A stretch of 64,000 bases of DNA from Candidatus Pacearchaeota archaeon (GCA_038874355.1 JAVZCO010000001.1:159295-223294), one strand, 5' to 3'; counted from the stretch's first letter, positions 9,054 to 45,786 are shown. Numbers and translations: made by a program. Notes: a model not told the origin generated them from the sequence alone.

Positions 9054-9072
9054 AAAAGATTAAATTTATAAA
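9054..9072 (+). promoter_or_regulatory. BRE/TATA-like box
   Basis: AAAAGATTAAATTTATAAA; the TATA centre lies about 25 nt upstream of the ATG at 9094. Confidence 0.45.
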
Positions 9073-9093
9073 TTATTATTAGTTTTTTAAACC

Positions 9094-9939: not shown

Positions 9940-10001
9940 AATTCTTTTTTAATTAATTTTAAGGATAAAAAAATGTAAGAATTTTATTAATTGAAATAAG
10001 A

Positions 10002-11088: not shown

Positions 11089-11573
11089 TTTATATCGCTT
11101 AGTAAAATTCTTTTTCCTTTAGCATTAGAAGATGTTAATATTATTAAATTATATAATTTATTTTCTTTGGATACATTTATTTCGCTTTTTACGCAAATTG
11201 GATAATTAATAGCATTTGCTTCTTCTTTTATTTCGCATTGTATAAACATAGATTCTGGTCCTAATATAATTTTTTTATTTTCTTGTACGACTTCGATTTT
11301 AGCACTAAAAAGTTCGCTGTTTAAAGTATTATTATTCAAATTACAAATTTCTAAAATATCTTTTTTTATTTCTTCTTCGCTCTTAGAAAAATTGAAATAA
11401 TTATTTTGCAAACAATGAGAAATTTTTTTATTTAATATTTTACTATCTAAACTCCTATAATCAATTTCTTTATTTGTAAAAATATAAATATTACTTATAA
11501 CTCCAACTATAACAATTATCCATATAAAAAACCACCATATTGTCATTATTTTTTCTATAGCAGTTTTATTCAT
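11085..11573 (-). CDS. hypothetical protein with an N-terminal hydrophobic anchor, possibly a minor pilin
   Basis: MNKTAIEKIMTIWWFFIWIIVIVGVISNIYIF. No clear K-[AG] cleavage motif. Sits in the same operon. Confidence 0.45.
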   Translation of the reverse strand: MNKTAIEKIMTIWWFFIWIIVIVGVISNIYIFTNKEIDYRSLDSKILNKKISHCLQNNYFNFSKSEEEIKKDILEICNLNNNTLNSELFSAKIEVVQENKKIILGPESMFIQCEIKEEANAINYPICVKSEINVSKENKLYNLIILTSSNAKGKRILLSDIK

Positions 11574-11590
11574 TTTATTTTAAATTTGTT

Positions 11591-11998
11591 TTATTTTTTA
11601 TCATAACTTTCTATTTTTAATATAAGATGATTATCTTCAAAGTATGTATTAATCTTAACATTATTAAAAAAATAATATGAATAATATGTTTGTGGATTTA
11701 AAGAAAAATAAACTATTCCTTTTTCATTGTTTATTTTTATTAAATTTTCTTTTTTTAATATACCTTTTTCAATTTCTTTTTCATATTTTTTATATAAATA
11801 ACTTAAATCAAAATAAATTGTTGTATTGGGTTCTGCCGAATTAATTAACAAAGCAATTTCTTTTGCATAATATTGTTCATCTATTAATTTACCATTTGAA
11901 GAATTATAAACAAAAATTAATAACGTGACAAAAATTATCATATTCAAAATTAAAAAGATAATATTTTCTTCTAATAATTGTTGACCTTTTTTATTCAT
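11591..11998 (-). CDS. pilin-like protein (class III signal peptide-like)
   Basis: MNKKG/QQLLEENIIFLILNMIIFVTLLIFV. Confidence 0.5.
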   Translation of the reverse strand: MNKKGQQLLEENIIFLILNMIIFVTLLIFVYNSSNGKLIDEQYYAKEIALLINSAEPNTTIYFDLSYLYKKYEKEIEKGILKKENLIKINNEKGIVYFSLNPQTYYSYYFFNNVKINTYFEDNHLILKIESYDKK

Positions 11999-12315
11999 AG
12001 AGTAATAAAAAATCTATAATTAATAAATATTTCTTAAAAAATCAAAATAAAAAAATTTAATTAATCTATAAAAAGATTCTTTTTTATTTCGAATCGTCTT
12101 GATTTTTATCAATCTTATTTCTCTCCTTATTACTTTGTTATACAGATATAATTTTAAATTTCTCTACTGCTTAAATTCCATAAATTTTTTTATATCCTTT
12201 AAATTGATTTTATTTTTAATTTTTTTTAAACTATTTTTATTAGATCTTCTACCTTCTACTTATTTTTTAAGTGTGCCTCTAATTTTTTTCAAATCTTTAT
12301 TCATAATATAAAAAT

Positions 12316-13524
12316 TTAAGGAATGCTTTCTATATTTCCAGAGCAATAAGTATTTATTGCTTGTGGTTCATATTTTACAACTCTTACAACACTGCAACCA
12401 CTTCTTGCATTTTTTGAAGATGAAGAAACGTCTCCGCAATAACCCATTGATACATGCCTATTATATGCTACATTAACTTGTTGAGCTCCTGCTATTACTC
12501 CTCCTAAAACAAAAGCTATTTTTAAACAATAAGGATTTGTTAAACAAGATTTAGTAAAACTAATTGTATTTCTAGGAGATAAAACAAAAGAACCTCCATA
12601 CATTAATCCTCCTAATTTAGCTAAATTCATTAAAGAATCTGCTACTTTAGGAGCACTAATCTGCATAAAAACAATTGCCAATTGTTCTCCATTCCATTCT
12701 GGTAATTCTCCACCAAAAGAGTATTTAATTTGATCTATTGCTAAAGAGGATTCTTTTTCTGAATTAGTGTCTTCTGATAATTCTGATACATACAAAAAAG
12801 AATTATTTATTATATTGTTTTTAGTTTCATTTGAAACAAATTCTATTTCAACCTGCTCTTCCTCTTCTTTAGTTATCTTTTCTATATCTTTTTTGTAATT
12901 TATATTATTTAAAACATCAAATGATATTTTTGCGAAATCTTCTCCTGCGGAAATATCATTTCCTAACATATAGGTATAATAAGAAACGCTCTTTCCAGGG
13001 ACAGCATGTGTTGCCATGTATTCTTGTACATTCACTTTTTTTATTTCATCCAAACTTATTCTTTCATCTATTGCGATTCTCGAACAAATAATACATGAAG
13101 GATACACCAATCCAAAACCATATCTTGTTGCAATAAACTGAGAAAATAAATCTAATCTTCCTTGCCCCATCATATTCCAGCATTCTAAAATTTCTTGAGA
13201 AATAACTTTTTCAATTCCTTCTTTATCTTTAACAATAACTTTTTCTACTCCTTTTTCTCCAGTAAATTCTTCACAATTACCAAAAACACTATTTGTAATA
13301 CAAACTTTTTTTTCTTTACATTGTAAAGGGGCATAAGATTTGCCAGCATCTAATACAGGAAGGCTAGCAATAGTTCCCCTCATTATAACACTTTGTTTAC
13401 ATGCTTCTCTATCTGTTCTTTGACTTAAGTTCAAATTTATAATAAAGAATAAAAGAATACCAAAAGCTAAGATTAATAAAATTATTGCTACTAATGTAGA
13501 CAAAGTAATTCCTCTTTTATTCAT
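12316..13524 (-). CDS. large pilin-like protein (class III signal peptide-like), Cys-rich
   Basis: MNKRG/ITLSTLVAIILLILAFGILLFFI. 402 aa. Confidence 0.55.
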   Translation of the reverse strand: MNKRGITLSTLVAIILLILAFGILLFFIINLNLSQRTDREACKQSVIMRGTIASLPVLDAGKSYAPLQCKEKKVCITNSVFGNCEEFTGEKGVEKVIVKDKEGIEKVISQEILECWNMMGQGRLDLFSQFIATRYGFGLVYPSCIICSRIAIDERISLDEIKKVNVQEYMATHAVPGKSVSYYTYMLGNDISAGEDFAKISFDVLNNINYKKDIEKITKEEEEQVEIEFVSNETKNNIINNSFLYVSELSEDTNSEKESSLAIDQIKYSFGGELPEWNGEQLAIVFMQISAPKVADSLMNLAKLGGLMYGGSFVLSPRNTISFTKSCLTNPYCLKIAFVLGGVIAGAQQVNVAYNRHVSMGYCGDVSSSSKNARSGCSVVRVVKYEPQAINTYCSGNIESIP

Positions 13525-13716
13525 ATTAAATTCAATAGTATTATAGTTATAAATTTAACTTTTCTATTTTTTATTCTTAAATAGAAATAAAGATTAATTA
13601 ACTTAAAGGAATTCTAAAATATCAAGTCAAATTATTATCTTTTCGATGAGTTGATTTTTAATATTCTACTTAATAAAAAATCTATTTTTTTATCTTAATT
13701 ACTAGTAAATAGGAAT

Positions 13717-14268
13717 TTATTTTTTATTTATTAATAAATTATTAAAAAATCTTTGAAGTTCTGATGTTGGACCTGTATCACAAACAATAGAAATATGCCC
13801 TTCCTTATTTTTATTTATTGTGCAGGGTGTTGATTGATAAATTGCAATAACATTCTCTTCATAATTTTTATTTTTTATTACTAAGTAGTCATCTACAACT
13901 TTACATACCGCTTTAGATTCGTCTAAATAACCATTTAAAGCATTCCAAGGGTTCTTTACAGCAGAAGAATGTGGAGCCAAACATAAACAATATTTTCCAT
14001 TGCAAATATTTGTTGTATTAAAATAAAAATAATAATCTTTTGGTGCGCTAATAATAAAACTTATTGATTGATTTTTTTCTTTATATACTTTAATCTTCCC
14101 CTCTATAATTTCTAAAGTAGACTTTGCTTGTTGAATTTTTGTATTCTGTATAAACATATTAAAAATTAAAATTGATAAAATAACAAGAAAAACTATACAT
14201 ATAATTGCAATTATTATTTTAAGAGTTTCTTCTGGCAATAATGTAGAACTTGCTTTTTTATTTTTCAT
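13717..14268 (-). CDS. pilin-like protein (class III signal peptide-like), Cys-rich
   Basis: MKNKKA/SSTLLPEETLKIIIAIICIVFLVILSILIF. Confidence 0.5.
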   Translation of the reverse strand: MKNKKASSTLLPEETLKIIIAIICIVFLVILSILIFNMFIQNTKIQQAKSTLEIIEGKIKVYKEKNQSISFIISAPKDYYFYFNTTNICNGKYCLCLAPHSSAVKNPWNALNGYLDESKAVCKVVDDYLVIKNKNYEENVIAIYQSTPCTINKNKEGHISIVCDTGPTSELQRFFNNLLINKK

Positions 14269-14615
14269 TTTATTATTAATCTTATTGCAATTATAAATTT
14301 ATTCTTTTTAATAAATTAAATAAAGAATATAAACAATAAGAATAAAAAGAGATAATTTTAAATTACTAAATAAAAAAGAAGATAAAAAATTCGTATACAT
14401 ATTTATTAGGGTTTAAACCGCAAAAATTTATACAACCAATAAAAAAGTAAAGATAGTAATCATTAAAAATATAAATATTATGTTAGTAATTTCATTTATT
14501 AGTAAAATTCTTATAATTTTTAAAAAATAAAATAATACAAATTAAAATAAGAATAAATGAAATAATGTATTTTAAGTATAATAAAATTTAAAAGATTCTT
14601 TTTATTTTATTTTTT

Positions 14616-15956
14616 ATGAATTTTAATAAAAAAATAAATAAATGGATAGCAACTTTGGGATTAGCAACAACATTTTTATTTCCTAATCCTGCTGCTTATC
14701 CTCAACAAAAAAGATATTTGCATTTAGAAAAACCAATTTTAAGAAAAGCAGAAATAAAAGACTCTATTTTTAATAAAGTTAAAGGAACTCTAGAGTTAAA
14801 ATTAGATTATAATCCAGAAAATAAAGAAATTTGTTTTGAAATCTATACTCCTGATTGGAATAAAAAGAAAGAAAATGTTGCTGATTTGGACAAAGAATAC
14901 ATAAATATAAGAGACGATTCTAAATTTTATATGATATGTAAAAGAGAAAATTTCGAATTTGATTATATAACATCAGAAGGTTATTTTATAGAATTAGATA
15001 AGAATAGAAACTCTTTTGGGGAATGGAAAAAATTAATAGATTTCGAAAAAAATCCTGATGCAAAATTAAAAATTCTTATAAGAAAAAAAGCATTATCTAA
15101 TTTCATAAAAGAAACAAAAATTCCTAATTTTATACCTATAATAACAGAAATTTTGGAATATTCTGAACTAAAAAAAGAAGTTGAATTAGAAAAGATAGCA
15201 TATACTATAGGAAAGGATTATGAAGTCAGAGAAATTGAAATAGGAACAGCAGAAGGATTATTTGCTACAAGAAATACTGCTGTAAAGATAAATATAAAAT
15301 TAAGAACAAATCCAGAAACAGAGAAAAAAACTATTTTATTTTATGATATAAAAATGGGCTCTTCAGGAAGTCCAATAGCTTCTTTATCTGCAAATGGAGA
15401 AATTAGTTTTATTGTTCCGGGTGAAAGAGAAAGAAAAGTACAAGAGCAAACACTTGATGATAAAATATTAGCAACTTTGACTGATTATGAAGATAAAGAA
15501 GAATGGCGTAAGTATTTGGGAAGAATTCCATTATCCATAAAAAAATATTTTTTTCAAAAAGAAGATATACCAAATAATTATAGATTAATAAGTTTGTGGT
15601 ATTCTTCTGGACTGGGAATGAAAAGATATTCTGAATTAAAAGAAATTTTTAATAAAGAATTTGATGTGATTATGATTTATGAAGATATAAAAAATAATAA
15701 AAAGGAAATGTCAAAAGAATCTATTTTTATGGTTAGAATGATAAAATATTATAAAGATTTAAAAGAATCAACTTTTTATGAAGATGTTGATATTAGAGAT
15801 GAAATATATGAAAATAAAGAAGATGGAATTGTTATAGAACTTTTAAATAGTTGGGGTAAAGATGTTGAACACATAAAAGTTTCTCCAGAATATTTGAAAA
15901 GATTAAGATTAGAAGAAAATAAAGAGAAATACTCTATAAAGAGAAAATTAGATTAA
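14616..15956 (+). CDS. secreted hypothetical protein
   Basis: Sec-type signal-like N-terminus KWIATLGLATTFLFPNPAAYPQQ. 446 aa. No family recognised. Confidence 0.55.
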   Translation: MNFNKKINKWIATLGLATTFLFPNPAAYPQQKRYLHLEKPILRKAEIKDSIFNKVKGTLELKLDYNPENKEICFEIYTPDWNKKKENVADLDKEYINIRDDSKFYMICKRENFEFDYITSEGYFIELDKNRNSFGEWKKLIDFEKNPDAKLKILIRKKALSNFIKETKIPNFIPIITEILEYSELKKEVELEKIAYTIGKDYEVREIEIGTAEGLFATRNTAVKINIKLRTNPETEKKTILFYDIKMGSSGSPIASLSANGEISFIVPGERERKVQEQTLDDKILATLTDYEDKEEWRKYLGRIPLSIKKYFFQKEDIPNNYRLISLWYSSGLGMKRYSELKEIFNKEFDVIMIYEDIKNNKKEMSKESIFMVRMIKYYKDLKESTFYEDVDIRDEIYENKEDGIVIELLNSWGKDVEHIKVSPEYLKRLRLEENKEKYSIKRKLD

Positions 15957-15961
15957 TAATT

Positions 15962-16558
15962 TTAAGTTATATCATTTTTTTTATTTCTTAAAATTCTATC
16001 ATAGACAGCTTTTGCATAAGATATTCTTTTTTCAGTAGAGCAATAATCAGGATGGCACCTTTCAAATTTATCTTGAAAGGAAATTGTAGCATCTCTAACA
16101 TTATTTTGGTATTTTAAATGATAATAAGCTTCTTTTTCAGTTCCTAGAAGTTCTTTTACTAAAAAGTTTAATTGACATAATAATACTTCCTTCTCTATTT
16201 CATTTGTTCTTTGACCTTCTGGAGTTTTTGTTTTCGGACAATCTTTTAATAATGCATCTTTTCTCTCGTTGTGCCATTGTGCTAATCCAATAGAAGTACA
16301 TTTATTATTTTTACAATCCCCTTCTAAAAAAGGGTCTAAATTTGATTCTTGGATTAAATTTCCTATTATACCCGCTATTTGTTCATCTGTTAAGGTTATA
16401 TTCTTTATATTCTTAAAATATTCATAAATGAGATCTACTTTATTTTCATAGTTAATATTTACACGCGTTGTTTCCACAGGATGCTCTAAAAAGTTTTTTA
16501 TATCGTTTTGTAAACTATATTTTTCTCCTTCTCTTGTTTTTTCTTCATTCTCTCCCAT
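15962..16558 (-). CDS. stand-alone lysozyme-like domain protein (phage-tail-lysozyme / lytic-transglycosylase-like), no signal peptide
   Basis: DEQIAGIIGNLIQESNLDPF...SIGLAQWHNERKDAL...CQLNFLVKEL...ISFQDKFERC...RISYAKAVY. Paralog of the central domain of ORF 16902-18956. Its own TATA-like box lies about 25 nt upstream. Confidence 0.7.
   Translation of the reverse strand: MGENEEKTREGEKYSLQNDIKNFLEHPVETTRVNINYENKVDLIYEYFKNIKNITLTDEQIAGIIGNLIQESNLDPFLEGDCKNNKCTSIGLAQWHNERKDALLKDCPKTKTPEGQRTNEIEKEVLLCQLNFLVKELLGTEKEAYYHLKYQNNVRDATISFQDKFERCHPDYCSTEKRISYAKAVYDRILRNKKNDIT
16197..16388. repeat. 192-nt block identical to 17701-17892
   Basis: Exact identity by eye across the lysozyme-like catalytic core, flanked by strongly diverged sequence. 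Confidence 0.85.
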
Positions 16559-16567
16559 ACAAAATTG
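16523..16567. repeat. 45-nt block identical to 18027-18071
   Basis: Covers MGENEEKTREGE plus 9 nt upstream of the small gene's ATG. The matching stretch is internal coding sequence in the large gene. Confidence 0.85.
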
Positions 16568-16901
16568 ATAGATTTAACTTATATTTTTATGATTGGCCCA
16601 AACTTTAGTAATAAAGAATTTTCTATTTCTAGATCCTTTTAATAAAGATGGCTTATTTTTAATAATTTATAAAGATACTGAAAAAGAACAGATTTATAAT
16701 AAACATTCTATTATAAAAATAATTAAATATTCTAAAGAAATTGATGAAAAATTTATAATAGATGATATTGAAGATTTTGGAAGTAGTGTATTAATAAATA
16801 AAAAAGAAAGAATGATAGTAGAATTGATTAATCGAGAAGAAGAAATAATAACAAAAAATTATTTAAAAAAATTTGATCTAGAAAAAATTAGATAATATAA
16901 A

Positions 16902-18956
16902 TTAAGTTATTTTATAAACAGCTCTTAATTTCTTTATACTTTCGCTACCAAAATTTACAGGTTTTTTATAACCAGAATCATGAATAAATAAAACTTTTTT
17001 TGTTTTTGGATCGTAACCATTCAAGATAACAATATGATAACCGCTATTAGAAACCTCACTTCTAAAAACACCTATATAACCTGATTTTAATATTTCATTA
17101 ATTTGTTCTTTATTGTTTGTATTTATTTCTCCATTTATCAAATAATCATAAATTTTTACCCCTCCATTTTTTAATATCTCTTTTTCTAATAGAGGAACAG
17201 AATCCCTTATCTCTATATTAATTCCAGCTTCTCTTAAAATATTACTCACAAATCTAGCGCAAACAAAATCTTTACAATTCCTTGCTTTATCCTTACAACC
17301 ATATCTTATAGTATCTTTACCAATATAACTATTCGCTATTCTAAGAATATCTCTACTCTTTCCTTCTCCTATATTAGAAGCAAGATAATCGTAAGAAGAG
17401 GGATCAATTTTATAGTTTCTATCCTGAAAAAAAGTGAATAGATTTAATAAAACATTTCTTATTCCACTTATTTCTCTTTCTTTGTGTCTTATTATATTAT
17501 AGAAAGCTTCTGCATATTCTATTCTTTTATTTGTGTTACAAAGTTTCGAATTACATTTTTCATATTCATTTTGGAATAGAATTGTTATATCTCTAACATT
17601 CTTCAATTTTTCCATTCTCTTTAAAACTCTACTTTTATATGGTTCTTTATTTAACTCTTTATTCAAAAAATCAAGTTGACAAAAGATCATTTTTAATTTT
17701 ATTTCATTTGTTCTTTGACCTTCTGGAGTTTTTGTTTTCGGACAATCTTTTAATAATGCATCTTTTCTCTCGTTGTGCCATTGTGCTAATCCAATAGAAG
17801 TACATTTATTATTTTTACAATCCCCTTCTAAAAAAGGGTCTAAATTTGATTCTTGGATTAAATTTCCTATTATACCCGCTATTTGTTCATCTTCATATCC
17901 CAAATCTTTTAAGTAGTAGTAAATAATTAAAGTTTCTTCTTTCAAAACTGTATTTTCTTTAAGTGAAGAAATAAAATTTTTTAAAAAATTTATATAATAT
18001 TCTACTTCACTTATTTCTTTTTCTGTTTCTCCTTCTCTTGTTTTTTCTTCATTCTCTCCCATACAAAATTGGTATTGCCATTTTCTATAAATCATTTTTA
18101 TTTTTTGTGAATATTCATGCCCTATACTCTTTAAAGTTTCTTCTGTTTCTCGATTATGATAATTTTTTCCTGTTTTATATATAGAAAGAATACAAGTGAA
18201 TTTTTCTTCTTCTGTTATTGAATTATAACATTCTTCATATTTTTCATTTTTGTTGTCAAATGCATTCCTTAATTCTTCTCCTAAATTTTTTATTTCTTCT
18301 TCATTCGTATTAAAATTTTTTTCATTGATTATGGAAATTAAAAGTGCTTTAAAAGATTCTTTATTCATAATTCTTGGATATTCTTTAACAATATTTTCTA
18401 CTAAAAACTTTAAAGATTCATTTTCGTAATATTTTTCTATTTCTGAAGGAGATTCTCTTATAATGTATCTATCATCACAAATAAAAGTTATCAATGGTCT
18501 ACATAATTTATTATCTAAAGAAAAATAAGAATTATGTATTCTTCTTAAAATATCTACTTCTGTATAATCGAGTTTATTGTTATAAGATAAATAATAATTA
18601 TCTATTTTTATTTGTTTTTGATTTGAAAGATATCCTACATATAATTCTCTAAGAAACTTTCCACCTGCTTTATAAATTTTATTATCTTTTATATAAAAAT
18701 CTGTTTTTATTTCTTTATTATTATCATAGATATAAATAAAATCTAACTTAATATTTCCAACATAATCCTCTCCAATACAAATTCCTAATTTTGCATATTC
18801 ATCTTTCGTAACATTTATTAAATGATCACTTTCGTTATAAGGTAAATTTTTAAAAAAATCTATTATTTGTGGTCTTGTTAAAAGTATTATAACAAAAACA
18901 ATTACTAAAATTATTAAAACTAAATAAATAGTTTTTTCCATTGATTGCTGAACCAT
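16902..18956 (-). CDS. membrane-anchored two-domain peptidoglycan hydrolase-like protein (lysozyme-like domain plus NlpC/P60- or CHAP-like cysteine peptidase domain)
   Basis: Signal-anchor IYLVLIILVIVFVIILL. Central GIIGNLIQES...GLAQW...R motif set. C-terminal ANSYIGKD...DFVCARFVSNILREAGINI...GYIGVFRS...GYHIVILNGY...FIHDSG (Cys/His pattern). Confidence 0.8.
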   Translation of the reverse strand: MVQQSMEKTIYLVLIILVIVFVIILLTRPQIIDFFKNLPYNESDHLINVTKDEYAKLGICIGEDYVGNIKLDFIYIYDNNKEIKTDFYIKDNKIYKAGGKFLRELYVGYLSNQKQIKIDNYYLSYNNKLDYTEVDILRRIHNSYFSLDNKLCRPLITFICDDRYIIRESPSEIEKYYENESLKFLVENIVKEYPRIMNKESFKALLISIINEKNFNTNEEEIKNLGEELRNAFDNKNEKYEECYNSITEEEKFTCILSIYKTGKNYHNRETEETLKSIGHEYSQKIKMIYRKWQYQFCMGENEEKTREGETEKEISEVEYYINFLKNFISSLKENTVLKEETLIIYYYLKDLGYEDEQIAGIIGNLIQESNLDPFLEGDCKNNKCTSIGLAQWHNERKDALLKDCPKTKTPEGQRTNEIKLKMIFCQLDFLNKELNKEPYKSRVLKRMEKLKNVRDITILFQNEYEKCNSKLCNTNKRIEYAEAFYNIIRHKEREISGIRNVLLNLFTFFQDRNYKIDPSSYDYLASNIGEGKSRDILRIANSYIGKDTIRYGCKDKARNCKDFVCARFVSNILREAGINIEIRDSVPLLEKEILKNGGVKIYDYLINGEINTNNKEQINEILKSGYIGVFRSEVSNSGYHIVILNGYDPKTKKVLFIHDSGYKKPVNFGSESIKKLRAVYKIT
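17701..17892. repeat. 192-nt block identical to 16197-16388
   Basis: See the partner block. Confidence 0.85.
18027..18071. repeat. 45-nt block identical to 16523-16567
   Basis: See the partner block. Confidence 0.85.
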
Positions 18957-18959
18957 TTT

Positions 18960-19118
18960 TTAACCAAATCTAAATAAATTTTTTAAATTTATAACCATCC
19001 CTTTTAGTTTTCCGCTTAATATTCCATAAGCAACAAGTACTAAAAACAAAAATATTAAAATTAAGATTATCTTTCCTAAAAAATCCATCTCTAAATCTGC
19101 TTTTTTTATTTTTTTCAT
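18960..19118 (-). CDS. 52-aa pilin-like mini-protein (start revised to an internal ATG)
   Basis: MKKIKKA/DLEMDFLGKIILILIFLFLVLVAYGIL. The track's longer 73-aa version would overlap the neighbouring small ORF. Lies 3 nt upstream of the hydrolase gene. Confidence 0.45.
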   Translation of the reverse strand: MKKIKKADLEMDFLGKIILILIFLFLVLVAYGILSGKLKGMVINLKNLFRFG

Positions 19119-19240
19119 TTTATAATATTTGAAAATATTTTTTTTATTGCAAAAAAAGCGATCCCAAATAAGATTATCCATAATAATATAATCAATATTT
19201 TTTTTAATCCTTGACTTTCTTCTTCTGCTCTTTTTTTCAT
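19115..19240 (-). CDS. 41-aa single-TM mini-protein (below the ORF-track cutoff)
   Basis: My own translation: MKKRAEEESQGLKKILIILLWIILFGIAFFAIKKIFSNIIK. Its stop overlaps the next ATG (ATGA). A TATA-like box lies about 28 nt upstream. Confidence 0.35.
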   Translation of the reverse strand: MKKRAEEESQGLKKILIILLWIILFGIAFFAIKKIFSNIIK

Positions 19241-19261
19241 TAGATCATTAAATTTTTTAAT

Positions 19262-19275
19262 ATTATAAATTTATC
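19262..19275 (-). promoter_or_regulatory. TATA-like box for the mini-ORF/hydrolase transcription unit
   Basis: The minus strand reads GATAAATTTATAAT, centred about 28 nt upstream of the ATG at 19240. Confidence 0.4.
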
Positions 19276-19357
19276 TTTTTATCTTATTATTTAATAAGAA
19301 AGTTATAAAATAAATTAAATAAACTTAATAAATTAGAAATAATTTTTATAATTTAGA

Positions 19358-21526
19358 TTATCCTAAATTCATCGCTGAAAGTGCAAATGAAGACAATAAT
19401 GATAAAATTAATATCGCCATAAAAGCTATAATAAAATACATTATTATTCCTCTTTTTAAATTCTTTCCAGTTTCATTAACAATTCTTAACTTATCATATC
19501 CATTTTCTATTGTTACTAAAGAATATGACAAAATAAAAGTAATTTCAATAATATATATTCCTATTACTATTTGTAAAAAATAAGGTGGAATCATAGCTTG
19601 TAAATTAAATATACTTAAGATATTTCCAAACCCTCCAATTGCTTCAGAAACTTCTTCGGCTCCTATGCCAGAAATTGAAATATTTAATTTTGTTAATATA
19701 TTTGTTATCATTCCTGTTAGCCCAATAATAATTCCTGCTAATAATGGTGCTAAAAATGTCATATTACTTCTCATGTCACTTGTTATTTCTGCTAATAAAT
19801 CCTTTAATCTTTCTTCTATTTTTTTTACATTTTTTGTATACTCACTTATAGACATTAATGAAGAGGCTGCTATTTTTAATCCTTTTTTTACAGATTCTAT
19901 TAAAATCATCATAGATGTTGCGATTAAAGCTGATGGATAATAAATTATAGCACCCCTTCTTTTATTAAATATGGCTTCTTCTAAATTCATACCTAACTGA
20001 TGCATATTTTGATTTACTATATTAAAAAATCCTTCTGTTGTTTGTCCTTTAACTGATTTAGCAACGTGTGAAAAAGCAATTTCTGCCGGCATTCCATCTC
20101 CTAATCTATTACCTAACTGGAATAAAGAAGAAGCAAATTCATCTTCTAATTTTTTACTTTTCTCTTTTGCAATAATTAAATCTTTTGTTTTTCTATTATA
20201 AGCAAAAGAAAAAAATATCCCTATTGATAAAGGAATAAATAAACTTAAAATTAAAGCGATAATACCAAATGGTCCTGTTTTTGTTTTCCCAACATTTTTA
20301 AAATCAAAAATCTTTAGATCTTCAAATCCAACTAACCTAAAACCAATTTCTCTAAAAGTGTAATCATTTTTTAAACCTAAATTATTAATAAAATTAGTTT
20401 GAAAAATAAATGGTAAAAAACCAATCATTAACAGAGGAAGAATAAGGAAAAAAGAAATTAGAAAAGGTTTTTTATCTATAAATTTTTTATAATCTTTATT
20501 TAATTCTAAAAGTTCTGTTTCTCCATAGCCACCTGGTCTTTTATAAAGAATTTCATTAGACATAAAAAAAACAAAAAAAGGAACTATAACATTAAAAATA
20601 AAAAACACATGATACCATTTTATTATTCCTGCTAACATAGTAGAAGCTAAAGGTAGCAAAGCAATTGCTAATGTAGGAAGTATTATACCTAACATATAAA
20701 TATTTGTTAAAGGACTTCTAATATCTCTACTATACTTCAACATTTTATCATAAATACCATCTAAAACAACTTGTAGAGCTTTTTCTAAAATAGTAATTCT
20801 TCTTGTTTCTTCTATCTCATATAGACTTGATTCAATTAAATGAAAAGCTTCTACAAATTCTATATTATCATCTTTCCAGGTTTCTAAATAAGCTTCTAAA
20901 CTTTCCTTAAGATTAGAATATTTTCCTATTTCAACATCCCAAAAAACTTTTTTTAAATCTAAAGATAAAGGAGGTTGTAAATGTTTAGCTGCGAAAGAAA
21001 TTGCTCTTTCTAAATTACTTGTATGTTTCATATAAGCAATTATGTACAAAATACATGGAACCATTTGAGAAGAAGTTTTTAATCTTCTTTGATTTGCTAA
21101 TCTATTTGGAGTTGTATAAAAATAATAAAACAAAAATATAGAAAAAAGTAAAAAGAAAAATAATAAAATAAATGGAAAGACATCTGTTAATAAAAAAATC
21201 AAAATGCTTAATAAAGTACCGAAAAAAAAAGTTAAAAATAAAGAGACAACAGATAAAGAAGCAACTTGTTCTGGTGTTATGTCTAATCTTGCTTTTTCTA
21301 TTTCTTTTTTTATTTTTTCATAATCTTTTTTTGAAGGTTTAATTTTGACACTATTACCAATTCCTTTACAAAGTTTCTCAAACCAATTTAATTCATAATA
21401 CATCTCTTCTTTAAATTTTTTGTAATCTCTACTAAAATCCTTATAAGGTATAATATCTGATCTTATCTCTTTTTCTATTTTTGCTCCATATTTTTTTAAT
21501 ATATCCTCTACCTTTATTTTTTCCAT
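19358..21526 (-). CDS. polytopic pilus/archaellum platform protein (FlaJ/TadC/PilC-like)
   Basis: About 720 aa with many TM helices arranged in two halves, immediately downstream of the secretion ATPase. Start revised from GTG at 21532 to ATG at 21526, which is preceded by the SD-like AGAGGTGA. Confidence 0.65.
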   Translation of the reverse strand: MEKIKVEDILKKYGAKIEKEIRSDIIPYKDFSRDYKKFKEEMYYELNWFEKLCKGIGNSVKIKPSKKDYEKIKKEIEKARLDITPEQVASLSVVSLFLTFFFGTLLSILIFLLTDVFPFILLFFFLLFSIFLFYYFYTTPNRLANQRRLKTSSQMVPCILYIIAYMKHTSNLERAISFAAKHLQPPLSLDLKKVFWDVEIGKYSNLKESLEAYLETWKDDNIEFVEAFHLIESSLYEIEETRRITILEKALQVVLDGIYDKMLKYSRDIRSPLTNIYMLGIILPTLAIALLPLASTMLAGIIKWYHVFFIFNVIVPFFVFFMSNEILYKRPGGYGETELLELNKDYKKFIDKKPFLISFFLILPLLMIGFLPFIFQTNFINNLGLKNDYTFREIGFRLVGFEDLKIFDFKNVGKTKTGPFGIIALILSLFIPLSIGIFFSFAYNRKTKDLIIAKEKSKKLEDEFASSLFQLGNRLGDGMPAEIAFSHVAKSVKGQTTEGFFNIVNQNMHQLGMNLEEAIFNKRRGAIIYYPSALIATSMMILIESVKKGLKIAASSLMSISEYTKNVKKIEERLKDLLAEITSDMRSNMTFLAPLLAGIIIGLTGMITNILTKLNISISGIGAEEVSEAIGGFGNILSIFNLQAMIPPYFLQIVIGIYIIEITFILSYSLVTIENGYDKLRIVNETGKNLKRGIIMYFIIAFMAILILSLLSSFALSAMNLG

Positions 21527-21554
21527 TTTCACCTCTTTTTTTATTTAATTTTAT

Positions 21555-23837
21555 TTATTTTTTCATTTTTTTAATTTCTTTTTTCATCCATTCTTTAACT
21601 AAAGGTAAGACTCTTTTTGATTCTGGTAATCCTATTTCTTCTTTTATTTTTTCTGAAATTTCATGAAAAATTGTATTACATTTAAAATTAAATTCTGCTT
21701 CTAATAAATCTTGTATAGAAGTTTTTTTATACATATTTAATATTTCTTCTTTTATTTTTGCCCTTAATAAAATATTATCATAAACCGCATCCCAATTTCC
21801 TGCCCATCCCTTAACATTAGCCGCTATACTTTTTATTATTTCTGAATCACCATTTATTAATTCGTCTGTAGCTTGTAATTCGTCTTTATCTGGGTTATAT
21901 TTAAATAAATCTACAAAACCTTTTTCTTCTAACGGATCTTTAATCCAATGTTTTCTAACCTCACTTATTTGTGTTATTCTTCTCCAAGACCTTATTCCAG
22001 AAGGAGATTTAATTAAATTAGCCACAACTATTAAATCCGTTGCTTTAAAACTTGTTACAGGAACTTGTAGATCATTAACTACTCTATCAAAAACTCCATA
22101 AGGAGAAGCTCCATGAATTGTTCCTGCAACTACATTTGCTAAAGCACCAACTCTCATAGCTTCATATAATGCTTTTGCTTCTATGCTTCTTACCTCTCCA
22201 ACTATTAAACAAGAATCTCCTAATCTTAAACTAGTTCTTATTCCTTCATCTGCTGCAACCTCATTACTAGATTGTAATAAAGCTGATCTAACTTTCATTC
22301 TTAAAATATCGTACCCTAATTTTCTTAATGAATCTACAGGTAATTCTAAAGTATCTTCAACAACAATAATTCTGTATTTAGGTACTATTTCAAGCATTAA
22401 ACTACCTAACAAAGAAGTTTTTCCTGCGCTTCTAGTTCCTGCTACAAGTAAAGTTCTTGCCCCATCAATACAAAAACTTAATAATCCGGCTGATAAAGAA
22501 TTTATCATTTTGTTTTTCATAAATAATGTTAAAGTCCATGGTTTGTCTCTATGCCTTCTTATAGAATATGCTAATCCATATGGTGATAAAGGTTGTTGTA
22601 TAACAGCTATTCTAGCTCTAGTTTCTCCTAAAAGTAATTCTGTATCTAATATAGGATTTGCTTCATCTAATGGTCTGCCAGATAGCATTCTAAATTTTGC
22701 TGCCCAGCTATCTGCATCTTCTTGGCTAGGAATTATATTTGTTAAACATTCGTCATATTCTTGATGCCTAACAAAAATATTATTTTGAGATATAGGAGCA
22801 TTTAAAACAATATCTTGCAAATTTTCATCTTGTAAAAGAACTTCTATTAAACCAAAACCTATAGTATGTCTTATTAATATCTTCGCTAATTTATTTAATT
22901 CCAGATAACTTAAATTTATATTTTTAGAATTAGCTAATTCCTGAATTAAATCTTTAGCAATATTAAAAAAAGTTTGTCTTGTTCTTTCTAAATCAATAAA
23001 TTCTTCTGCTTTTGGTTGATGCTCAATTAAAACGTTTCTAGCTAAATTTAAAAGCATTTGATGATCTTCATTAAGAATATATTCTGGAGGTGTTATATGA
23101 TAAATGTATTTTGGTTCGTTTATTTTTTTTAATATTGTAACATGAGCTTTATCTTTTTCTTCTCCTATTTCATATTCATCTATTATTTCTGCATCTTCTG
23201 GAAGTTTTAAGATTAGTCTTGTAAATGTAAAATTTGGTATTATTTCTGGTCTAAAGAATCTTTTATATATCTCCCTATTATTAAAAGAATATTCTTCTAT
23301 ATATTTTTGTGCCTCTTTTATTAAATTTGTTCCTTCTAAAAGAAGAGTTATTTTTTCTAATAATCTTATATAATTCATCAAACAAAATTTACATTGATAT
23401 GTTTTTTCTAAATTATTTCTTTGTTCTGACAGGATTTTTTTAATAAAAATATAAGCTCCTATTGGATCTTGTTTTAATAAATTAATAAAATTATTAACTA
23501 CATCATATCTTTTTCCTAAACATTGCTGACAATTAAGAACTAATCTTCCTGGAGATAAAATCCTTTCTTGTTTTACTAAATGTATATAGATTCTTGCTAT
23601 CTCATTTAATAAGGATATTTGATTAAAATCATAAACATAGTTTCTTTGTTGAACAAAAACTATTCTTGAAATTTTTGGATTTTCTATTAATAAACTTATT
23701 GCTTTTTCCATAGACTCTTTATTTTCAGAAATATTTGGAATAAGAGAAGAACCCATATAGTTTACATAAGCTACATCTATTCCAGTCTCTCTTACAATTT
23801 CATAAGAATATAACGGAGTACCTTTTTTAAATAACAT
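21555..23837 (-). CDS. type II/IV secretion-family ATPase (FlaI/PilB/VirB11-like)
   Basis: Walker A GTRSAGKTS, Asp box VVEDTLEL, Walker B CLIVGEVR, His box AGTIHGASP. Start revised from TTG at 23852 to ATG at 23837, which has a TATA-like box about 25 nt upstream. Confidence 0.9.
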   Translation of the reverse strand: MLFKKGTPLYSYEIVRETGIDVAYVNYMGSSLIPNISENKESMEKAISLLIENPKISRIVFVQQRNYVYDFNQISLLNEIARIYIHLVKQERILSPGRLVLNCQQCLGKRYDVVNNFINLLKQDPIGAYIFIKKILSEQRNNLEKTYQCKFCLMNYIRLLEKITLLLEGTNLIKEAQKYIEEYSFNNREIYKRFFRPEIIPNFTFTRLILKLPEDAEIIDEYEIGEEKDKAHVTILKKINEPKYIYHITPPEYILNEDHQMLLNLARNVLIEHQPKAEEFIDLERTRQTFFNIAKDLIQELANSKNINLSYLELNKLAKILIRHTIGFGLIEVLLQDENLQDIVLNAPISQNNIFVRHQEYDECLTNIIPSQEDADSWAAKFRMLSGRPLDEANPILDTELLLGETRARIAVIQQPLSPYGLAYSIRRHRDKPWTLTLFMKNKMINSLSAGLLSFCIDGARTLLVAGTRSAGKTSLLGSLMLEIVPKYRIIVVEDTLELPVDSLRKLGYDILRMKVRSALLQSSNEVAADEGIRTSLRLGDSCLIVGEVRSIEAKALYEAMRVGALANVVAGTIHGASPYGVFDRVVNDLQVPVTSFKATDLIVVANLIKSPSGIRSWRRITQISEVRKHWIKDPLEEKGFVDLFKYNPDKDELQATDELINGDSEIIKSIAANVKGWAGNWDAVYDNILLRAKIKEEILNMYKKTSIQDLLEAEFNFKCNTIFHEISEKIKEEIGLPESKRVLPLVKEWMKKEIKKMKK

Positions 23838-24068
23838 CTTAATTTTTAACAATTTTTTTATAAAAAAATAAGAAAATTGAGTATTAAATATCTTTCTAAA
23901 TTTATACTTATTAGATAAAATTTTTATATTTAAGACATCTTATATTTAAAAAAATTTTATCATCTTATAAATTGAAATTTATTTTGATTAAATAAAATGA
24001 AAAGAATTTAAAAGATAAATATTTTAAACCCATTTGTATATTATACTTTTATAAAAGGGGATTAAAAA

Positions 24069-24392
24069 ATGGAAGAAAAGACTAATAATTTTATAACTTC
24101 TATAATTTCTGATTTTAACTTAAGAATATCTGATATAGAAGAAAAGCAAAGATTATTAAGAGATAGAATTATATTAGTAGGTAAAAATATTATTGAATTA
24201 AGAGAAGAACAATCAAAAGAAATGACCGAAATAAAATTAAGATTAGAAGAAATAGAAAAATCTGTAGAAAAAATAAAATCTGCTTTGCTAACATTAAGTA
24301 ATGAATTAGAAAAAAAAGCTAGAAAATCTGAACTTGAAATAATAAAAAAGCAAATAAAAATGTTTGAGCCTTTAAAATCAAAAGAAGAATAA
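24069..24392 (+). CDS. coiled-coil protein, hypothetical
   Basis: Heptad-rich K/E/L sequence. Preferred over the antisense S/F/I-rich ORF 24062-24400. Its C-terminal half resembles that of the next gene. Confidence 0.5.
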   Translation: MEEKTNNFITSIISDFNLRISDIEEKQRLLRDRIILVGKNIIELREEQSKEMTEIKLRLEEIEKSVEKIKSALLTLSNELEKKARKSELEIIKKQIKMFEPLKSKEE

Positions 24393-24393
24393 A

Positions 24394-25101
24394 ATGACAA
24401 TAATAGATCAAATAAAAAAAATGAGAGAAAATGGGATGACAGAAATGGATATTATAAAAAAATTACAAGAAGCGGGTTATTCTCCATTAGAAATAAATCA
24501 AGCTATAGAGCAATCTAAAATAAAAGCAGCAATTTCTGATTTAAATTCAGATTTACCTCAAGAAGATAATTTTGATACAGAATTGATAAAAAATATGCAA
24601 CAAAGTATAATGGAGCAATCAAATGAAAATAATTTACCTCTTTTACCACAACCGGATCAGCAATTACAAATTTCAGAAAATATCCCAGAAGAACAATATG
24701 AACAACAATATCCTATAGAATCTATACAACAACAAGAATACTATCCTCCTCAAAACTATTATCAAGAGCAATATCCTATTTACCAGCCATCTTATAACGA
24801 AAATGTTAATGAAATAATAGATCAGATAGTAGAGGAAAAAATAAACAAAACCAGAAAAAAAGTTATAGAATTAAATTCTTTTAAAATACTAGTTGAAAAA
24901 AAAATAAGAAATATAGATGTAAGGTTAAGAAAAATAGAAAATTTTATTCAGGAATTAGAAATAAAAATTCTTGGCAAAGTAAGTAGTTATGGGGAAAATT
25001 TACAAGACATCAAAAAAGAAATGGAAATGATGCAAGATTCTTTCAGTAGTGTTTTGGAAAGTATCAAAAATTCTTTAGGTAAGGAAAAGAAGAAGAAATA
25101 G
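24394..25101 (+). CDS. hypothetical protein: small helical N-domain, Q/P/Y-rich linker, C-terminal coiled coil
   Basis: N-terminus QIKKMRENGMTEMDIIKKLQEAGYSPLEINQAIEQ, then a Q-rich low-complexity stretch, then a coiled coil. 2-nt gap to the upstream gene. Confidence 0.55.
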   Translation: MTIIDQIKKMRENGMTEMDIIKKLQEAGYSPLEINQAIEQSKIKAAISDLNSDLPQEDNFDTELIKNMQQSIMEQSNENNLPLLPQPDQQLQISENIPEEQYEQQYPIESIQQQEYYPPQNYYQEQYPIYQPSYNENVNEIIDQIVEEKINKTRKKVIELNSFKILVEKKIRNIDVRLRKIENFIQELEIKILGKVSSYGENLQDIKKEMEMMQDSFSSVLESIKNSLGKEKKKK

Positions 25102-25102
25102 A

Positions 25103-25579
25103 TTATTTTTTTGTTAAAATCCAAGAGACTACCACTACTACTATAACTAAAATTATAAAATCAAAAATTTTTGTATTTTCACTTATTGTTGATTTAAGTT
25201 TATCTAAAAACATAAAATTAGAAAAGACCATATTTGCTGAAATTAAAAAAATTATTATTAAAACTATAACTATAAACCAAACAATAGATGGTTTAAAAAC
25301 AATTTCTGCTTTTTGTTGACTCATTCCTATAACTAAGAGTATAAAAAATATACAGATAACAAAAACAACTACCCATGGAGTTATAGTTTGAATATATTCT
25401 TTCGGCTTTGTTGTTGTTGAAAATATAATTGATATGATAAAACTAATTAAAAGATGGGCAAACTTATTTTCTCCAACAATTTTTATTTTTTCTAATATAA
25501 GAAAGATTATTATAAAAACAAATAGAAACATAAATAAAGGCATAAAATATTCAGCAAAGGAAATTTCAAATACCATCAT
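25103..25579 (-). CDS. 4-TM membrane protein, paralog family member 1
   Basis: Shares the pattern F..(L/M)P(L/F)...F....IL......G/F.E.K....L with the next two genes. Confidence 0.5.
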   Translation of the reverse strand: MMVFEISFAEYFMPLFMFLFVFIIIFLILEKIKIVGENKFAHLLISFIISIIFSTTTKPKEYIQTITPWVVVFVICIFFILLVIGMSQQKAEIVFKPSIVWFIVIVLIIIFLISANMVFSNFMFLDKLKSTISENTKIFDFIILVIVVVVVSWILTKK

Positions 25580-25636
25580 ATAAGATAATTTTTTTTTATT
25601 TAAAAGTTTTTTGTTTTCAAAAATATCTTAAATTAA

Positions 25637-25698
25637 TTGTAAGGCAACATTCCTCTTATTGTTCTTTTCATTATTTTTTCTGCACTAGAAGGAAAAGA
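25637..25698 (-). pseudogene. intergenic fragment of the ribosomal protein L13 gene
   Basis: 38 nt identical, and about 58 of 62 nt overall, to 60000-60060 inside rpl13. Would encode ...EKIMKRTIRGMLPY. Confidence 0.6.
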
Positions 25699-25704
25699 AC
25701 ATTT

Positions 25705-26223
25705 TTATTTTTCATCTTTTTTTCTAATAACAAGAACAATAGCAAAAATTAATATACCAGCAACAAGAGTAACAGCTCCATATCTTTCCCACCAAGATTC
25801 AAATTCAGAATAACCCATATAACCTGTATCTCTAAAAGCATTTATTATAACAATTAGAAATATTACACCACCTATAATTAAAAATAAAGATTTTTGCCAT
25901 TTGCTCCCTGTTTCAACAAAAGCTCCCAATAAAATTAAAGCAACTATTAAAACTCCAAGGCCTTTTCCTAAGTAAGGAAATAATTTAGAAAAAAAGATTG
26001 GAACTGCATCATATAACAAAGATAATAAACCTATAGCTAAAGATATAATTAAAGCAGCTCCTTTATTTTCTTTAAATAAGGACAAATTTGATAATATAGT
26101 GTATACTAAAGCAAATATTAATAAAAATGGCAAAACATAAGAGAAAAATCCTAAATCTGCTAAATCATTTAAAACATCTGCAATAGATGTGCTACCTGCC
26201 CATTGCAATAAGATTCCTAACAT
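25705..26223 (-). CDS. 4-TM membrane protein, paralog family member 2
   Basis: FFSYVLPFLLIFALVYTILSNLSLFKENKGAALIISLAIGLL. Confidence 0.55.
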   Translation of the reverse strand: MLGILLQWAGSTSIADVLNDLADLGFFSYVLPFLLIFALVYTILSNLSLFKENKGAALIISLAIGLLSLLYDAVPIFFSKLFPYLGKGLGVLIVALILLGAFVETGSKWQKSLFLIIGGVIFLIVIINAFRDTGYMGYSEFESWWERYGAVTLVAGILIFAIVLVIRKKDEK

Positions 26224-26433
26224 ATTCCAAATAATATTTTTTAATTTAAATATCTTTCGTTTATTAGTTTTGTAAATTTAAGAATTTATTTTTCATTTAT
26301 TTTTTTAATCTTATTTTATTAATAAATTAGTAATTATCTTTAATTTAAAGTATTAAAGGAATAAATTTATATTCTATTTTTTCTCAAGAAAGATTTTCTA
26401 TTTTAAATTTTATACCAAGAAATGTTTTTTATT

Positions 26434-26925
26434 TCATTCCTTTCCTTTCATTTTCCAAACACTTATCATAGCAACAATTATTGCTATAATGAAAATAAGA
26501 TTTGTTAAAACTTTTTTCCCTTTTTCTTTACTAAAAAAATCTATAAAATTATCCCAGCTATTTGTTATTTTTAATAAACTTATAGCAACAACAATTATTG
26601 AAATAAAAACAATAACAGAAATAGCACCTCTTGGTAATTTTATTTCTTTTTCTTGCTTTGCAAAACCATAAATTATTAAAAAAACTAATAAAATAACAAC
26701 CATAACAGCTAAAATTGGCATTAATTTTACTACAATAATTCTAGATTCAGGAAAAGATACTAATAATAAACCAATTACTAAACCTACCAAAGCATTTACT
26801 TGTTTTTTTCCCTCACCTAGAATATTTGATCTATCTAGTATAGCAAAAACAACAGAAAAAACAAGTATAAAAGGTAGAATAAAATCTTGAAAAATAGGGG
26901 AACTTAAAATTGTTTCTGATGCCAT
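26434..26925 (-). CDS. 4-TM membrane protein, paralog family member 3
   Basis: FQDFILPFILVFSVVFAILDRSNILGEGKKQVNALVGLVIGLL. Confidence 0.55.
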   Translation of the reverse strand: MASETILSSPIFQDFILPFILVFSVVFAILDRSNILGEGKKQVNALVGLVIGLLLVSFPESRIIVVKLMPILAVMVVILLVFLIIYGFAKQEKEIKLPRGAISVIVFISIIVVAISLLKITNSWDNFIDFFSKEKGKKVLTNLIFIIAIIVAMISVWKMKGKE

Positions 26926-26951
26926 TATTTAGATTAAAAAGATTTTATTTT

Positions 26952-27239
26952 TTAATAGGTTTCTGATAATTCTTCATTAGATGGTATGTCTATTTCTTCT
27001 CTTATAGGTAATACTGTTTTACTCATAACAAAAACATCTCCAATTGACTTAACAAAACTATGAGGTGCTATCAAACCTCTTGCTCCTCCAATCATCCTTG
27101 AAATTTGGCTGTTAACTCTAACTTTCCACCCATCAATTTTATTATCTACTAAATTTGCTTCTTCTATTTGGCCAATAAAATCTCCTGCATCAGTAAATAC
27201 ATTCTTTCCTAAAACTTCTGAAATTCTTTTTATTTTCAT
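26952..27239 (-). CDS. PRC-barrel domain protein
   Basis: 95 aa. ISEVLGKNVFTDAGDFIGQIEEANLVDNKIDGWKV is a typical PRC-barrel N-terminal pattern. Confidence 0.65.
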   Translation of the reverse strand: MKIKRISEVLGKNVFTDAGDFIGQIEEANLVDNKIDGWKVRVNSQISRMIGGARGLIAPHSFVKSIGDVFVMSKTVLPIREEIDIPSNEELSETY

Positions 27240-45785: not shown

Positions 45786-45786
45786 T

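Follow-up and report, generated by a model that had tools for sequence, protein, structure and literature searches.

A predicted murein hydrolase on a pilin-like carrier at a fixed position in a type IV filament locus of DPANN archaea

Here we analyse a 64,000-nucleotide (nt) stretch of DNA from Candidatus Pacearchaeota archaeon (GCA_038874355.1, JAVZCO010000001.1:159295-223294), referred to in its full length as the window, and a 684-amino-acid (aa) modular protein (16902-18956, minus strand) encoded there within a type IV filament locus. This protein joins a pilin-like carrier to a lysozyme and to a papain-like peptidase domain, and the linkage between the pilus and murein hydrolases that it represents is strongly supported. 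We are confident that the hydrolase is an integral and conserved fusion protein of the pilus locus, and favor, with more reserve, the overall reading that it is presented against the murein of a bacterial partner. That it is actually incorporated into the filament is a more tentative suggestion from its sequence, which we regard as a serious possibility and not as the expected outcome.

The window is archaeal, since it encodes PolD DP1 and DP2, Cdc6/Orc1 and RadA; its guanine-cytosine (GC) content is 18-27% (genome ~23%), its source contig measures 575 kb, and the closest database relatives of its genome are bins labelled Woesearchaeota, members of the DPANN (Diapherotrites, Parvarchaeota, Aenigmarchaeota, Nanoarchaeota and Nanohaloarchaeota) archaea. 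A first-pass annotation had placed on one strand, between 15962 and 23852, an ATPase, a platform protein, two pilin-like mini-proteins, a lysozyme/peptidase fusion and a 198-aa lysozyme paralog, and had proposed from them a pilus-coupled cell-wall module. The order and coordinates of these genes proved exact, and the locus is bigger than that interval: it spans 7314-23852, adding seven pilin-like genes and an A24 prepilin peptidase, and is a complete type IV filament locus, Tad/Epd-like, of a DPANN archaeon. Read along the minus strand it opens with a 765-aa FlaI/TadA-like type IV filament secretion ATPase (21555-23852), which matches Pfam T2SSE (E 6e-11) and, both below equivalog cut-offs, NCBIfam FlaI (1e-39) and TadA-family (3e-35) models. 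A 724-aa polytopic membrane protein follows (19358-21532), with at least eight predicted transmembrane (TM) segments and large soluble loops, for which searches of Pfam, NCBIfam and PDB sequences gave no match; of the annotated ATPase/platform pair, the first is thus upheld by family matches and the second by context, with no family model behind it. Next come the 41-aa (19115-19240, KKRA leader) and 52-aa (18960-19118, small1, KKA leader, C-terminal IKNLFRFG) mini-proteins, which are pilin-like as described, both being conserved families with a K-K-[GA] leader and then one TM helix. The 52-aa open reading frame (ORF) starts at an internal ATG of a 73-aa ORF, a start that its homologues also use; these stand at the same position in 13 listed loci, and Pfam offers only a weak DUF7554 match. 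Junctions are tight, the two small genes overlapping by ATGA and the second lying 3 nt from the hydrolase gene.

Word-indexed homologue searches performed poorly on this low-complexity, AT-rich proteome (4, 3 and 2 matches), and an exhaustive profile search was needed. The word-indexed search recovered three hydrolase homologues (34-37% identity), on whose contigs the order is ATPase, platform, a 42-47-aa gene, a 53-58-aa gene, hydrolase, a convergent ~440-aa gene, pilin-like genes and A24 peptidase; this gene order is shared by L001-L005 and L018-L020, with junctions of 1-4 nt. By tblastn, synteny with relatives is complete across 7314-27239, at identities of ~81% for the ATPase, 73% for the platform, 34-37% for the hydrolase and mostly 31-60% for the pilin-like genes. 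When the N-terminal 300 aa were used in the exhaustive search, no more than six clusters (at 50% identity) contained the complete carrier, and the three that this search newly added also directly follow the platform and small genes. Every carrier-type homologue with enough contig to show its neighbours occupies the same slot. Followed across relatives, as the first-pass annotation had proposed, the hydrolase therefore keeps a fixed place in the pilus operon and is not scattered, and this adjacency is not due to chance.

The same backbone also occurs without the enzyme. The ATPase is 80-85% identical across relatives, and the platform gene, always directly downstream of it, is 73-75% identical in close relatives and 51-63% in Woesearchaeota metagenome-assembled genomes (MAGs) and L022. 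A scan of GTDB genomes with the platform protein yielded nine loci (platform identity 53-63%), of which eight bear the label 'Candidatus Woesearchaeota archaeon' and the ninth that of 'uncultured archaeon'. In all but one of the nine loci, the hydrolase slot is filled by a leaderless 51-54-aa protein, small2 (MAELTIxQLIKII...FFKNxxIDFFKxLPG), preceded by a small1 homologue; since the backbone is built in these eight related loci with small2 in place of a hydrolase, filament assembly does not require the enzyme. In two loci (L008 2956-4506; L023 325-1872, P0024) the small2 slot holds leader-bearing pilin-like proteins of ~515 aa, whose C-terminal parts match no known domain and may carry unrecognised cargo modules. 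The 41-aa family is present in every carrier-type hydrolase locus (window, L001-L005, L017-L020; hidden Markov model (HMM) E 5e-20 or better), and its HMM gave only chance-level matches in the other loci, including those with a bare small2 (E ~0.007 or worse). This restriction may reflect shared ancestry of the clade or an accessory role specific to the hydrolase.

The carrier of the hydrolase (aa 1-298; 18063-18956, minus strand) consists of a leaderless TM helix with a KNLP motif (aa 1-45), a beta-rich part extending to about aa 160, and a helical part from about aa 175 to 298 that ends in WQYQFC, a junction conserved across the clade as W-Q-x-Y-F-C. Hydropathy places the TM helix at aa 9-27, and the AlphaFold2 (AF2) model has a helix at aa 2-36 followed by strands at 67-118, these at a predicted local distance difference test score (pLDDT) of 60-80. 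The first ~45 aa are homologous to stand-alone small2 (carrier HMM E 4e-7 to 4e-5), and the sequence suggests that the hydrolase is a small2 mini-protein grown stepwise, by the beta-rich part, then the helical part with its W-Q-x-Y-F-C end, and then the catalytic cassettes. In the mechanism we propose, small2 would have been extended into an extracellular carrier, at whose W-Q-x-Y-F-C end interchangeable murein-hydrolase cassettes would have been grafted; the protein would be co-expressed with the pilus genes, and its pilin-like helix would hold it in the membrane or the filament.

A profile search with the carrier returned 227 relatives (at least 227 clusters), some 200 small proteins among them matching positions 1-160. 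The motif F-K-x-x-I-x-x-W-x-K-N-L-P-G-Y behind the helix is conserved in this family, and 104 of the 134 members with an N-terminal TM helix have a [KR][GAS] leader ahead of it, including one that carries an SLT domain (P0149). The window hydrolase (Met-Val-Gln-Gln) begins where the mature end of these leader-bearing relatives would begin. Ahead of the helix, Lys8 and Thr9 are invariant in all six aligned carriers, and Gln4 and Glu7 are kept in four of the six. The family looks like a pilin-like family missing from Pfam, and the only Pfam domains found among 142 of its members are Amidase_2, M23 and SLT. Scans with carrier patterns gave nothing in GTDB genomes and, in Joint Genome Institute (JGI) metagenomes, only a known contig, which may reflect under-sampling of the family or overly strict patterns and is not evidence of absence.

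The helical part of the carrier (subdomain 2; FKALLVAIAQKES ... CILSIYNTG ... W..WK.YF) is an uncharacterised domain that occurs also in P0014 and P0047. PDB profile searches with it were empty, and no Pfam match was found on P0014 or P0047. A degenerate SLT origin of this stretch (aa ~175-298; AQKES ... SIYNSG) was considered and rejected as unsupported, hhalign against an SLT alignment giving a probability of 0.3%. The domain is repeated at the C-termini of giant surface-type proteins (P0012, P0023, P0134, P0144 and P0135; 1775-2788 aa); in P0012 it adjoins a canonical SLT domain, and some copies keep QKES while others have lost the Glu.

Two catalytic domains follow the carrier. The first (aa 344-488; 17493-17927, minus strand) is a PF18013 Phage_lysozyme2 domain (E 1e-26, 94 bits against a cut-off of 28.2), for which the top Foldseek match is the phi29 tail cell-wall-degrading enzyme gp13 (3csq; probability 1.00, 154-160 aligned columns). 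Glu369, in a QES motif, is invariant in five aligned archaeal lysozyme sequences and is the probable catalytic acidic residue. The second (aa 513-684; 16905-17420, minus strand) has no significant Pfam or PDB sequence match, its similarity to Pfam Peptidase_C39_2 remaining below threshold (E 0.23 for the window, 0.0023 for P0009). In the full-length AF2 model its pLDDT is below 50, and a separate model of the domain was used instead (predicted template modelling score 0.79). All Foldseek matches of that model are papain-like: Alr0975, NlpC/P60 4xcm, the CHAP domains of LysGH15 and LysK, and the murein amidases Tse1 and Tae3 of type VI secretion systems (E 1e-4 to 1e-2). In addition, a Cys (DFVCARFVSN) and a His (SGYHIV) are invariant in three homologues of the domain. 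The model thus points to a papain-like fold, NlpC/P60 or CHAP-like, with no single subfamily or bond assigned, so that of the annotated lysozyme/peptidase fusion the lysozyme half rests on a firm family match and the peptidase half on predicted structure, without a sequence match.

Eight distinct loci bear a murein hydrolase in this slot, and the cassettes differ. Besides the lysozyme and papain-like Cys/His pair of the window, they comprise lysozyme with Amidase_2 (P0002, P0003), lysozyme alone (P0004), Amidase_2 alone (P0008), the papain-like domain alone (P0009, P0005), M23 (P0010) and, at a more distant locus with a platform 51% identical, SLT on the leader-bearing P0149. Carriers and cassettes are incongruent: P0008 and P0009 have carriers 66% identical and different cassettes (Amidase_2 and papain-like), whereas P0002 and P0008 share 57% identity in their amidases and 30% in their carriers, and the window and P0009 share 58% in their papain-like domains and 35% in their carriers. 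Since close carriers bear different cassettes and distant carriers share them, cassettes appear to have been exchanged by recombination at the WQxYFC junction. Other pilin-like genes of the same locus type, in two further Woesearchaeota MAGs, also bear hydrolases, with SLT in L009 (15257-16093; 8e-15) and Amidase_2 in L016 (10268-11488; 9e-20), each a separate instance of a murein hydrolase joined independently to a pilin-like protein. The distant PF18013 relatives P0006 and P0007 have bacterial, phage-like surroundings and bear on the origin of the domain and not on the archaeal locus.

Lysozyme, Amidase_2, M23 and SLT enzymes cut murein-specific bonds, namely the bond between N-acetylmuramic acid (MurNAc) and L-Ala, the beta-1,4 bond between MurNAc and N-acetylglucosamine (GlcNAc), and murein peptide cross-links. 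We know of no DPANN archaeon that makes murein, and because the archaeon itself is not expected to have any, the most likely target is bacterial peptidoglycan. The enzymes would then act on the peptidoglycan of a bacterial partner contacted by the pilus, in attachment, penetration or feeding. No small conserved gene that might encode cognate immunity follows the cassettes, their neighbour being the convergent ~440-aa gene; such a gene would be needless in a producer without murein.

Several points weigh against this reading. The hydrolase N-terminus, MVQQSMEK, runs into the helix with no [KR][GA] leader, and its homologues start M[GA][QE]; because this leader is missing, cleavage by the A24 peptidase is doubtful and strict membership among pilins is not established. 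Pfam pilin models matched none of the 142 carrier family members, and Foldseek with the N-terminal module found no similar solved pilin; the pilin fold is unproven. An outward-facing C-terminus is likewise not clearly favored by the charge distribution of the short small2. All the evidence comes from metagenome assemblies and from genes alone, with pilins assigned by context and motif and the platform protein, which has no model support, assigned putatively by position, size and synteny. Finally, the carrier-type hydrolases all derive from a single narrow clade (80-85% identity of the ATPase), so that common descent accounts in part for their fixed position, and the tandem arrangement of lysozyme copies described below rests on one metagenome-assembled contig.

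The missing class III leader, on the window hydrolase and its close homologues alike, and the lack of a structural match to pilins would also fit a plain membrane-anchored surface enzyme that never enters the filament, shares the operon for co-production, and comes to bear when the pilus pulls the cell onto a bacterium. We consider this unlikely, while ranking it first among the alternatives: the helix and KNLPGY motif belong to a large family in which leaders predominate (104/134), stand-alone small2 is a fixed component of the locus, and the residues conserved just ahead of the helix (Lys8 and Thr9 in six carriers, Gln4 and Glu7 in four) would be unusual for a simple anchor. A second alternative keeps the bacterial substrate and removes the attack, the enzymes recovering amino sugars and amino acids from free peptidoglycan or from the debris of dead cells. 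A dependence on external building blocks is known for DPANN genomes. The murein hydrolases of Woesearchaeota have been discussed in relation to the recycling of cell material (Vigneron et al. 2022, PMC9723730). However, fusion to a pilin-like protein and rapid cassette turnover look more like a contact-dependent, target-specific function than like bulk digestion, and no genes for muropeptide uptake or catabolism were seen in the locus, which makes scavenging a rather improbable explanation. Still less credible is a role in which the enzymes would work on the envelope of the producer itself or on pseudomurein in an archaeal (methanogen) host, comparable to that of the lytic transglycosylases dedicated to bacterial pilus and secretion systems: bacterial type IV pilus, type III and type IV secretion and flagellar loci often include a dedicated wall hydrolase, and Woesearchaeota have been proposed as partners of methanogens, but pseudomurein is without MurNAc and lysozyme-resistant, the bonds cut by these enzymes are specific to murein, which DPANN are not known to make, and eight related loci assemble the backbone with the 52-aa small2 only.

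The first-pass annotation had drawn its argument for pilus-dependent export from the 198-aa paralog (15962-16558, minus strand). This protein does carry a lysozyme domain (PF18013 E 9e-25, 88 bits against a cut-off of 28.2), and no TM segment or signal was found in it. What had been described as an opposite-strand spacer between it and the hydrolase does lie on the plus strand there, and is a ~100-aa ORF (16593-16895) that represents the 3' part of another, diverged copy of the convergent gene, matching the last ~90 residues of the 446-aa protein (blastx against aa 345-433: 29%, E 2e-5). The paralog is offset from the parent lysozyme domain by 1504 nt and is 73.6% identical to it overall (blastn, identical blocks counted), with two blocks of 100% identity (16196-16388 = 17700-17892, 193 nt; 16522-16567 = 18026-18071, 46 nt) and much lower similarity outside them. 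The 46-nt block crosses the carrier/cassette junction (...YQFC|MGENEEKTREGE) and includes 9 nt upstream of the paralog's ATG, and its ORF begins at an internal Met of the parent frame, exactly at the carrier/cassette boundary. Outside the identical block its tail is 45-53% identical to relatives' lysozymes and 50% to the neighbouring parent copy, whose own tail is more divergent from relatives (36-46%). It abuts the full convergent gene, as in the lysozyme-only architecture of P0004. Neither a second lysozyme copy nor the 945-bp insert (15957-16901) is present in any of the syntenic relatives. Both window lysozyme copies have a CKNNKC insertion, within the 193-nt block, that relatives' lysozymes are without; because it is common to both and lies inside that block, it is consistent with recent gene conversion between them.

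Its absence from relatives, internal-Met start, identical blocks and preceding gene fragment mark the 198-aa ORF as a recombination by-product, and it is best read as a displaced orphan cassette and not as an effector exported by the pilus. In this scenario a segment comprising a second lysozyme, the papain-like domain and a convergent gene's 3' end would have recombined in at the carrier/cassette junction, displacing an older resident lysozyme cassette and stranding it without a carrier; the plus-strand ORF would be a remnant of the same event, and gene conversion would afterwards have homogenised 193 nt. An assembly chimera was also considered for the tandem copies and is conceivable. The identical blocks could mislead an assembler within the lysozyme domain, but such an error would not create the junction between gene fragment and orphan.

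That the leaderless lysozyme is instead a true soluble effector, which the pilus machinery next to it would export from the cytoplasm much as a type II secretion system (T2SS) or Tad system does, seems to us very improbable. In its favor, all 198 codons form an intact ORF in DNA of 23% GC, every residue invariant across the lysozyme domains is retained, and an AT-rich, TATA-like stretch is present ~25-35 nt upstream of the ATG; such strings are expected by chance in this DNA, however, and the orphan is missing from every syntenic relative and bears the recombination marks just described. Nor does this putative substrate gene accompany the machinery elsewhere, since no syntenic locus contains a second lysozyme. 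Type IV filament machines extract membrane-embedded pilins, and T2SS substrates first cross the cytoplasmic membrane by Sec or Tat; we know of no type IV filament machine that carries leaderless cytoplasmic proteins across that membrane. For the main hydrolase no special export route is called for, since a pilin-like TM helix stands at its own N-terminus. The proposed pilus-coupled cell-wall module therefore stands on the fixed slot, the small2-homologous N-terminus and the repeated hydrolase fusions, and loses the argument from the signal-less paralog.

The convergent 446-aa gene (14616-15956, plus strand) has no known domain; Pfam and NCBIfam searches gave no match and a hydropathy scan no TM segment, and its N-terminus resembles a signal peptide, judged by eye alone. 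It adjoins the hydrolase in all close relatives (L001-L005, L019, L020) at 33-39% identity and with a gap of ~12-50 nt, and L010 has a possible counterpart at 12152-13489. Its product changes at the pace of the hydrolase (33-39% identity, compared with 81% in the ATPase), and its 3' end was co-duplicated with the cassette; because of both features it may be a functional partner of the hydrolase.

Downstream lie the seven pilin-like genes (13717-14268, 12316-13524, 11591-11998, 11085-11573, 10579-11088, 10002-10589 and 8582-9004, all on the minus strand), interrupted by one plus-strand gene (9094-9939); relatives and Woesearchaeota MAGs keep them in this order. Six of them encode a [KR][GA] motif ahead of a lone N-terminal TM helix (e.g. 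MNKRG|ITLSTLV and MKNKKA|QIGETLTW), and in the seventh (162 aa) MNKTA precedes the helix instead. Class III motif and single TM helix thus occur together in eight of nine small or pilin-like genes of the locus, an assignment by motif alone, as no pilin model matches. The 281-aa prepilin/preflagellin peptidase (7314-8159, minus strand; Pfam Peptidase_A24 E 3e-12, NCBIfam FlaK 3e-12) occupies the same end of the locus in relatives. Between the platform gene and the 41-aa ORF is an AT-rich gap of 117 nt (19241-19357), where the first-pass annotation had seen a TATA-like promoter; since TATA-like strings are found everywhere at 23% GC and are expected by chance, this cannot be judged.

Beyond the ATPase, two genes of 107 and 235 aa (24069-25101, plus strand), divergent from it, are kept in relatives, L010 and L012 and have no family assignment. 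Just upstream of the pilus locus are three paralogous small membrane proteins (158, 172 and 163 aa, with 4-5 TM segments each; 25103-26925, minus strand), which are kept in relatives and match no known family. Elsewhere in the window, Cdc6/Orc1 and the small and large PolD subunits are adjacent (40665-46992, minus strand) and may mark the neighbourhood of a replication origin, and there is a single tRNA-Leu(CAA) (60630-60713).

The closest precedent in design is provided by bacterial modular type IV pilins with grafted modules, such as PilB and PilC of Streptococcus sanguinis (Raynaud et al. 2021, PMC8179133), with which the hydrolase shares a small pilin-like N-terminal module joined to a functional module, a gene in the pilus locus and many alternative modules. 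The window carrier differs in being archaeal (DPANN), in having no class III leader and in matching no pilin model; moreover, its modules are murein hydrolases where those of the bacterial pilins are adhesins or lectins, and its cassettes are exchanged among close relatives. Strock et al. 2025 (PMC12352652) describe archaeal peptidoglycan hydrolases that kill bacteria, and Vigneron et al. 2022 (PMC9723730) report GH23 murein transglycosylases from Woesearchaeota; both resemble the window hydrolase as modular murein hydrolases encoded by murein-less archaea and presumed to target bacteria. Those enzymes are described as Sec/Tat-secreted or free, whereas here they are fused to a pilus-locus protein and fixed in its operon, and the text of neither PMC12352652 nor PMC9723730 mentions pili or PF18013. 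Type IV pili of episymbiotic Saccharibacteria, which belong to the Candidate Phyla Radiation (CPR), mediate binding to bacterial hosts (PMC9894109, PMC11623550) and offer a parallel in lifestyle: an ultrasmall, host-dependent organism, type IV pili and contact with a bacterial cell. That system is bacterial, with no pilin-hydrolase fusions mentioned, whereas ours is archaeal, includes a pilin-like hydrolase fusion and is known from genes alone. A 2026 preprint on archaeal type IV filament systems describes substrate-binding proteins with class III signals and no hydrolases, and our literature searches turned up no DPANN archaeon for which a pilin-hydrolase fusion had been described.

Two further comparisons concern architecture. 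phi29 gp13 (3csq), which we take to be a PF18013 lysozyme joined to M23, shares the lysozyme family and fold and the pairing of a glycosidase with a peptidase on a wall-contacting structure; the window carrier, in contrast, is a pilin-like helix in a cellular pilus operon and not a phage tail, and its second domain is papain-like, although the relative P0010 does carry M23. Rhs and CdiA polymorphic toxins likewise join variable C-terminal cassettes to a constant N-terminal carrier at a sharp junction motif, and have downstream 5'-truncated orphan cassettes that keep a short stretch identical at the junction. They differ in that here an immunity gene is neither expected nor seen, the carrier has no relation to theirs, and there is one orphan in one genome; the resemblance is one of logic and not of ancestry. 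Archaeal murein hydrolases and bacterial modular pilins are thus known already, and the unexpected addition is the polymorphic-toxin-like logic of cassettes and orphan.

Murein hydrolases in DPANN genomes have been noted earlier and treated as free enzymes, and to our knowledge all cultivated DPANN archaea live on archaeal hosts, so whether some of them live on or prey upon bacteria is an issue to which this locus speaks. A pilin-like build, at least five catalytic families in one slot and movement of cassettes turn a loose genomic hint into a concrete hypothesis, that of a pilus-presented, fast-evolving tool for breaching bacterial walls, and they extend the idea of the modular pilin to archaea and to enzymatic cargo. 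Pfam is found to lack both a large family of pilin-like proteins (at least 227 clusters) and the helical domain, and the small2/KNLPGY carrier ending in WQxYFC provides a signature with which metagenomes may be screened for archaea that interact with bacteria. A bolder extension, which is conceivable and which we put forward as speculation, is that in some DPANN (Woesearchaeota-like) archaea the pilus is a contact-dependent delivery device against bacteria, in which a pilin-like subunit of the tip or shaft would carry polymorphic cassettes swapped at a fixed junction, with silent orphans as a reservoir, to match the wall chemistry of host or prey. If this is true, archaeal episymbiosis with bacteria, or predation on them, would gain a molecular mechanism as well as a genomic marker.

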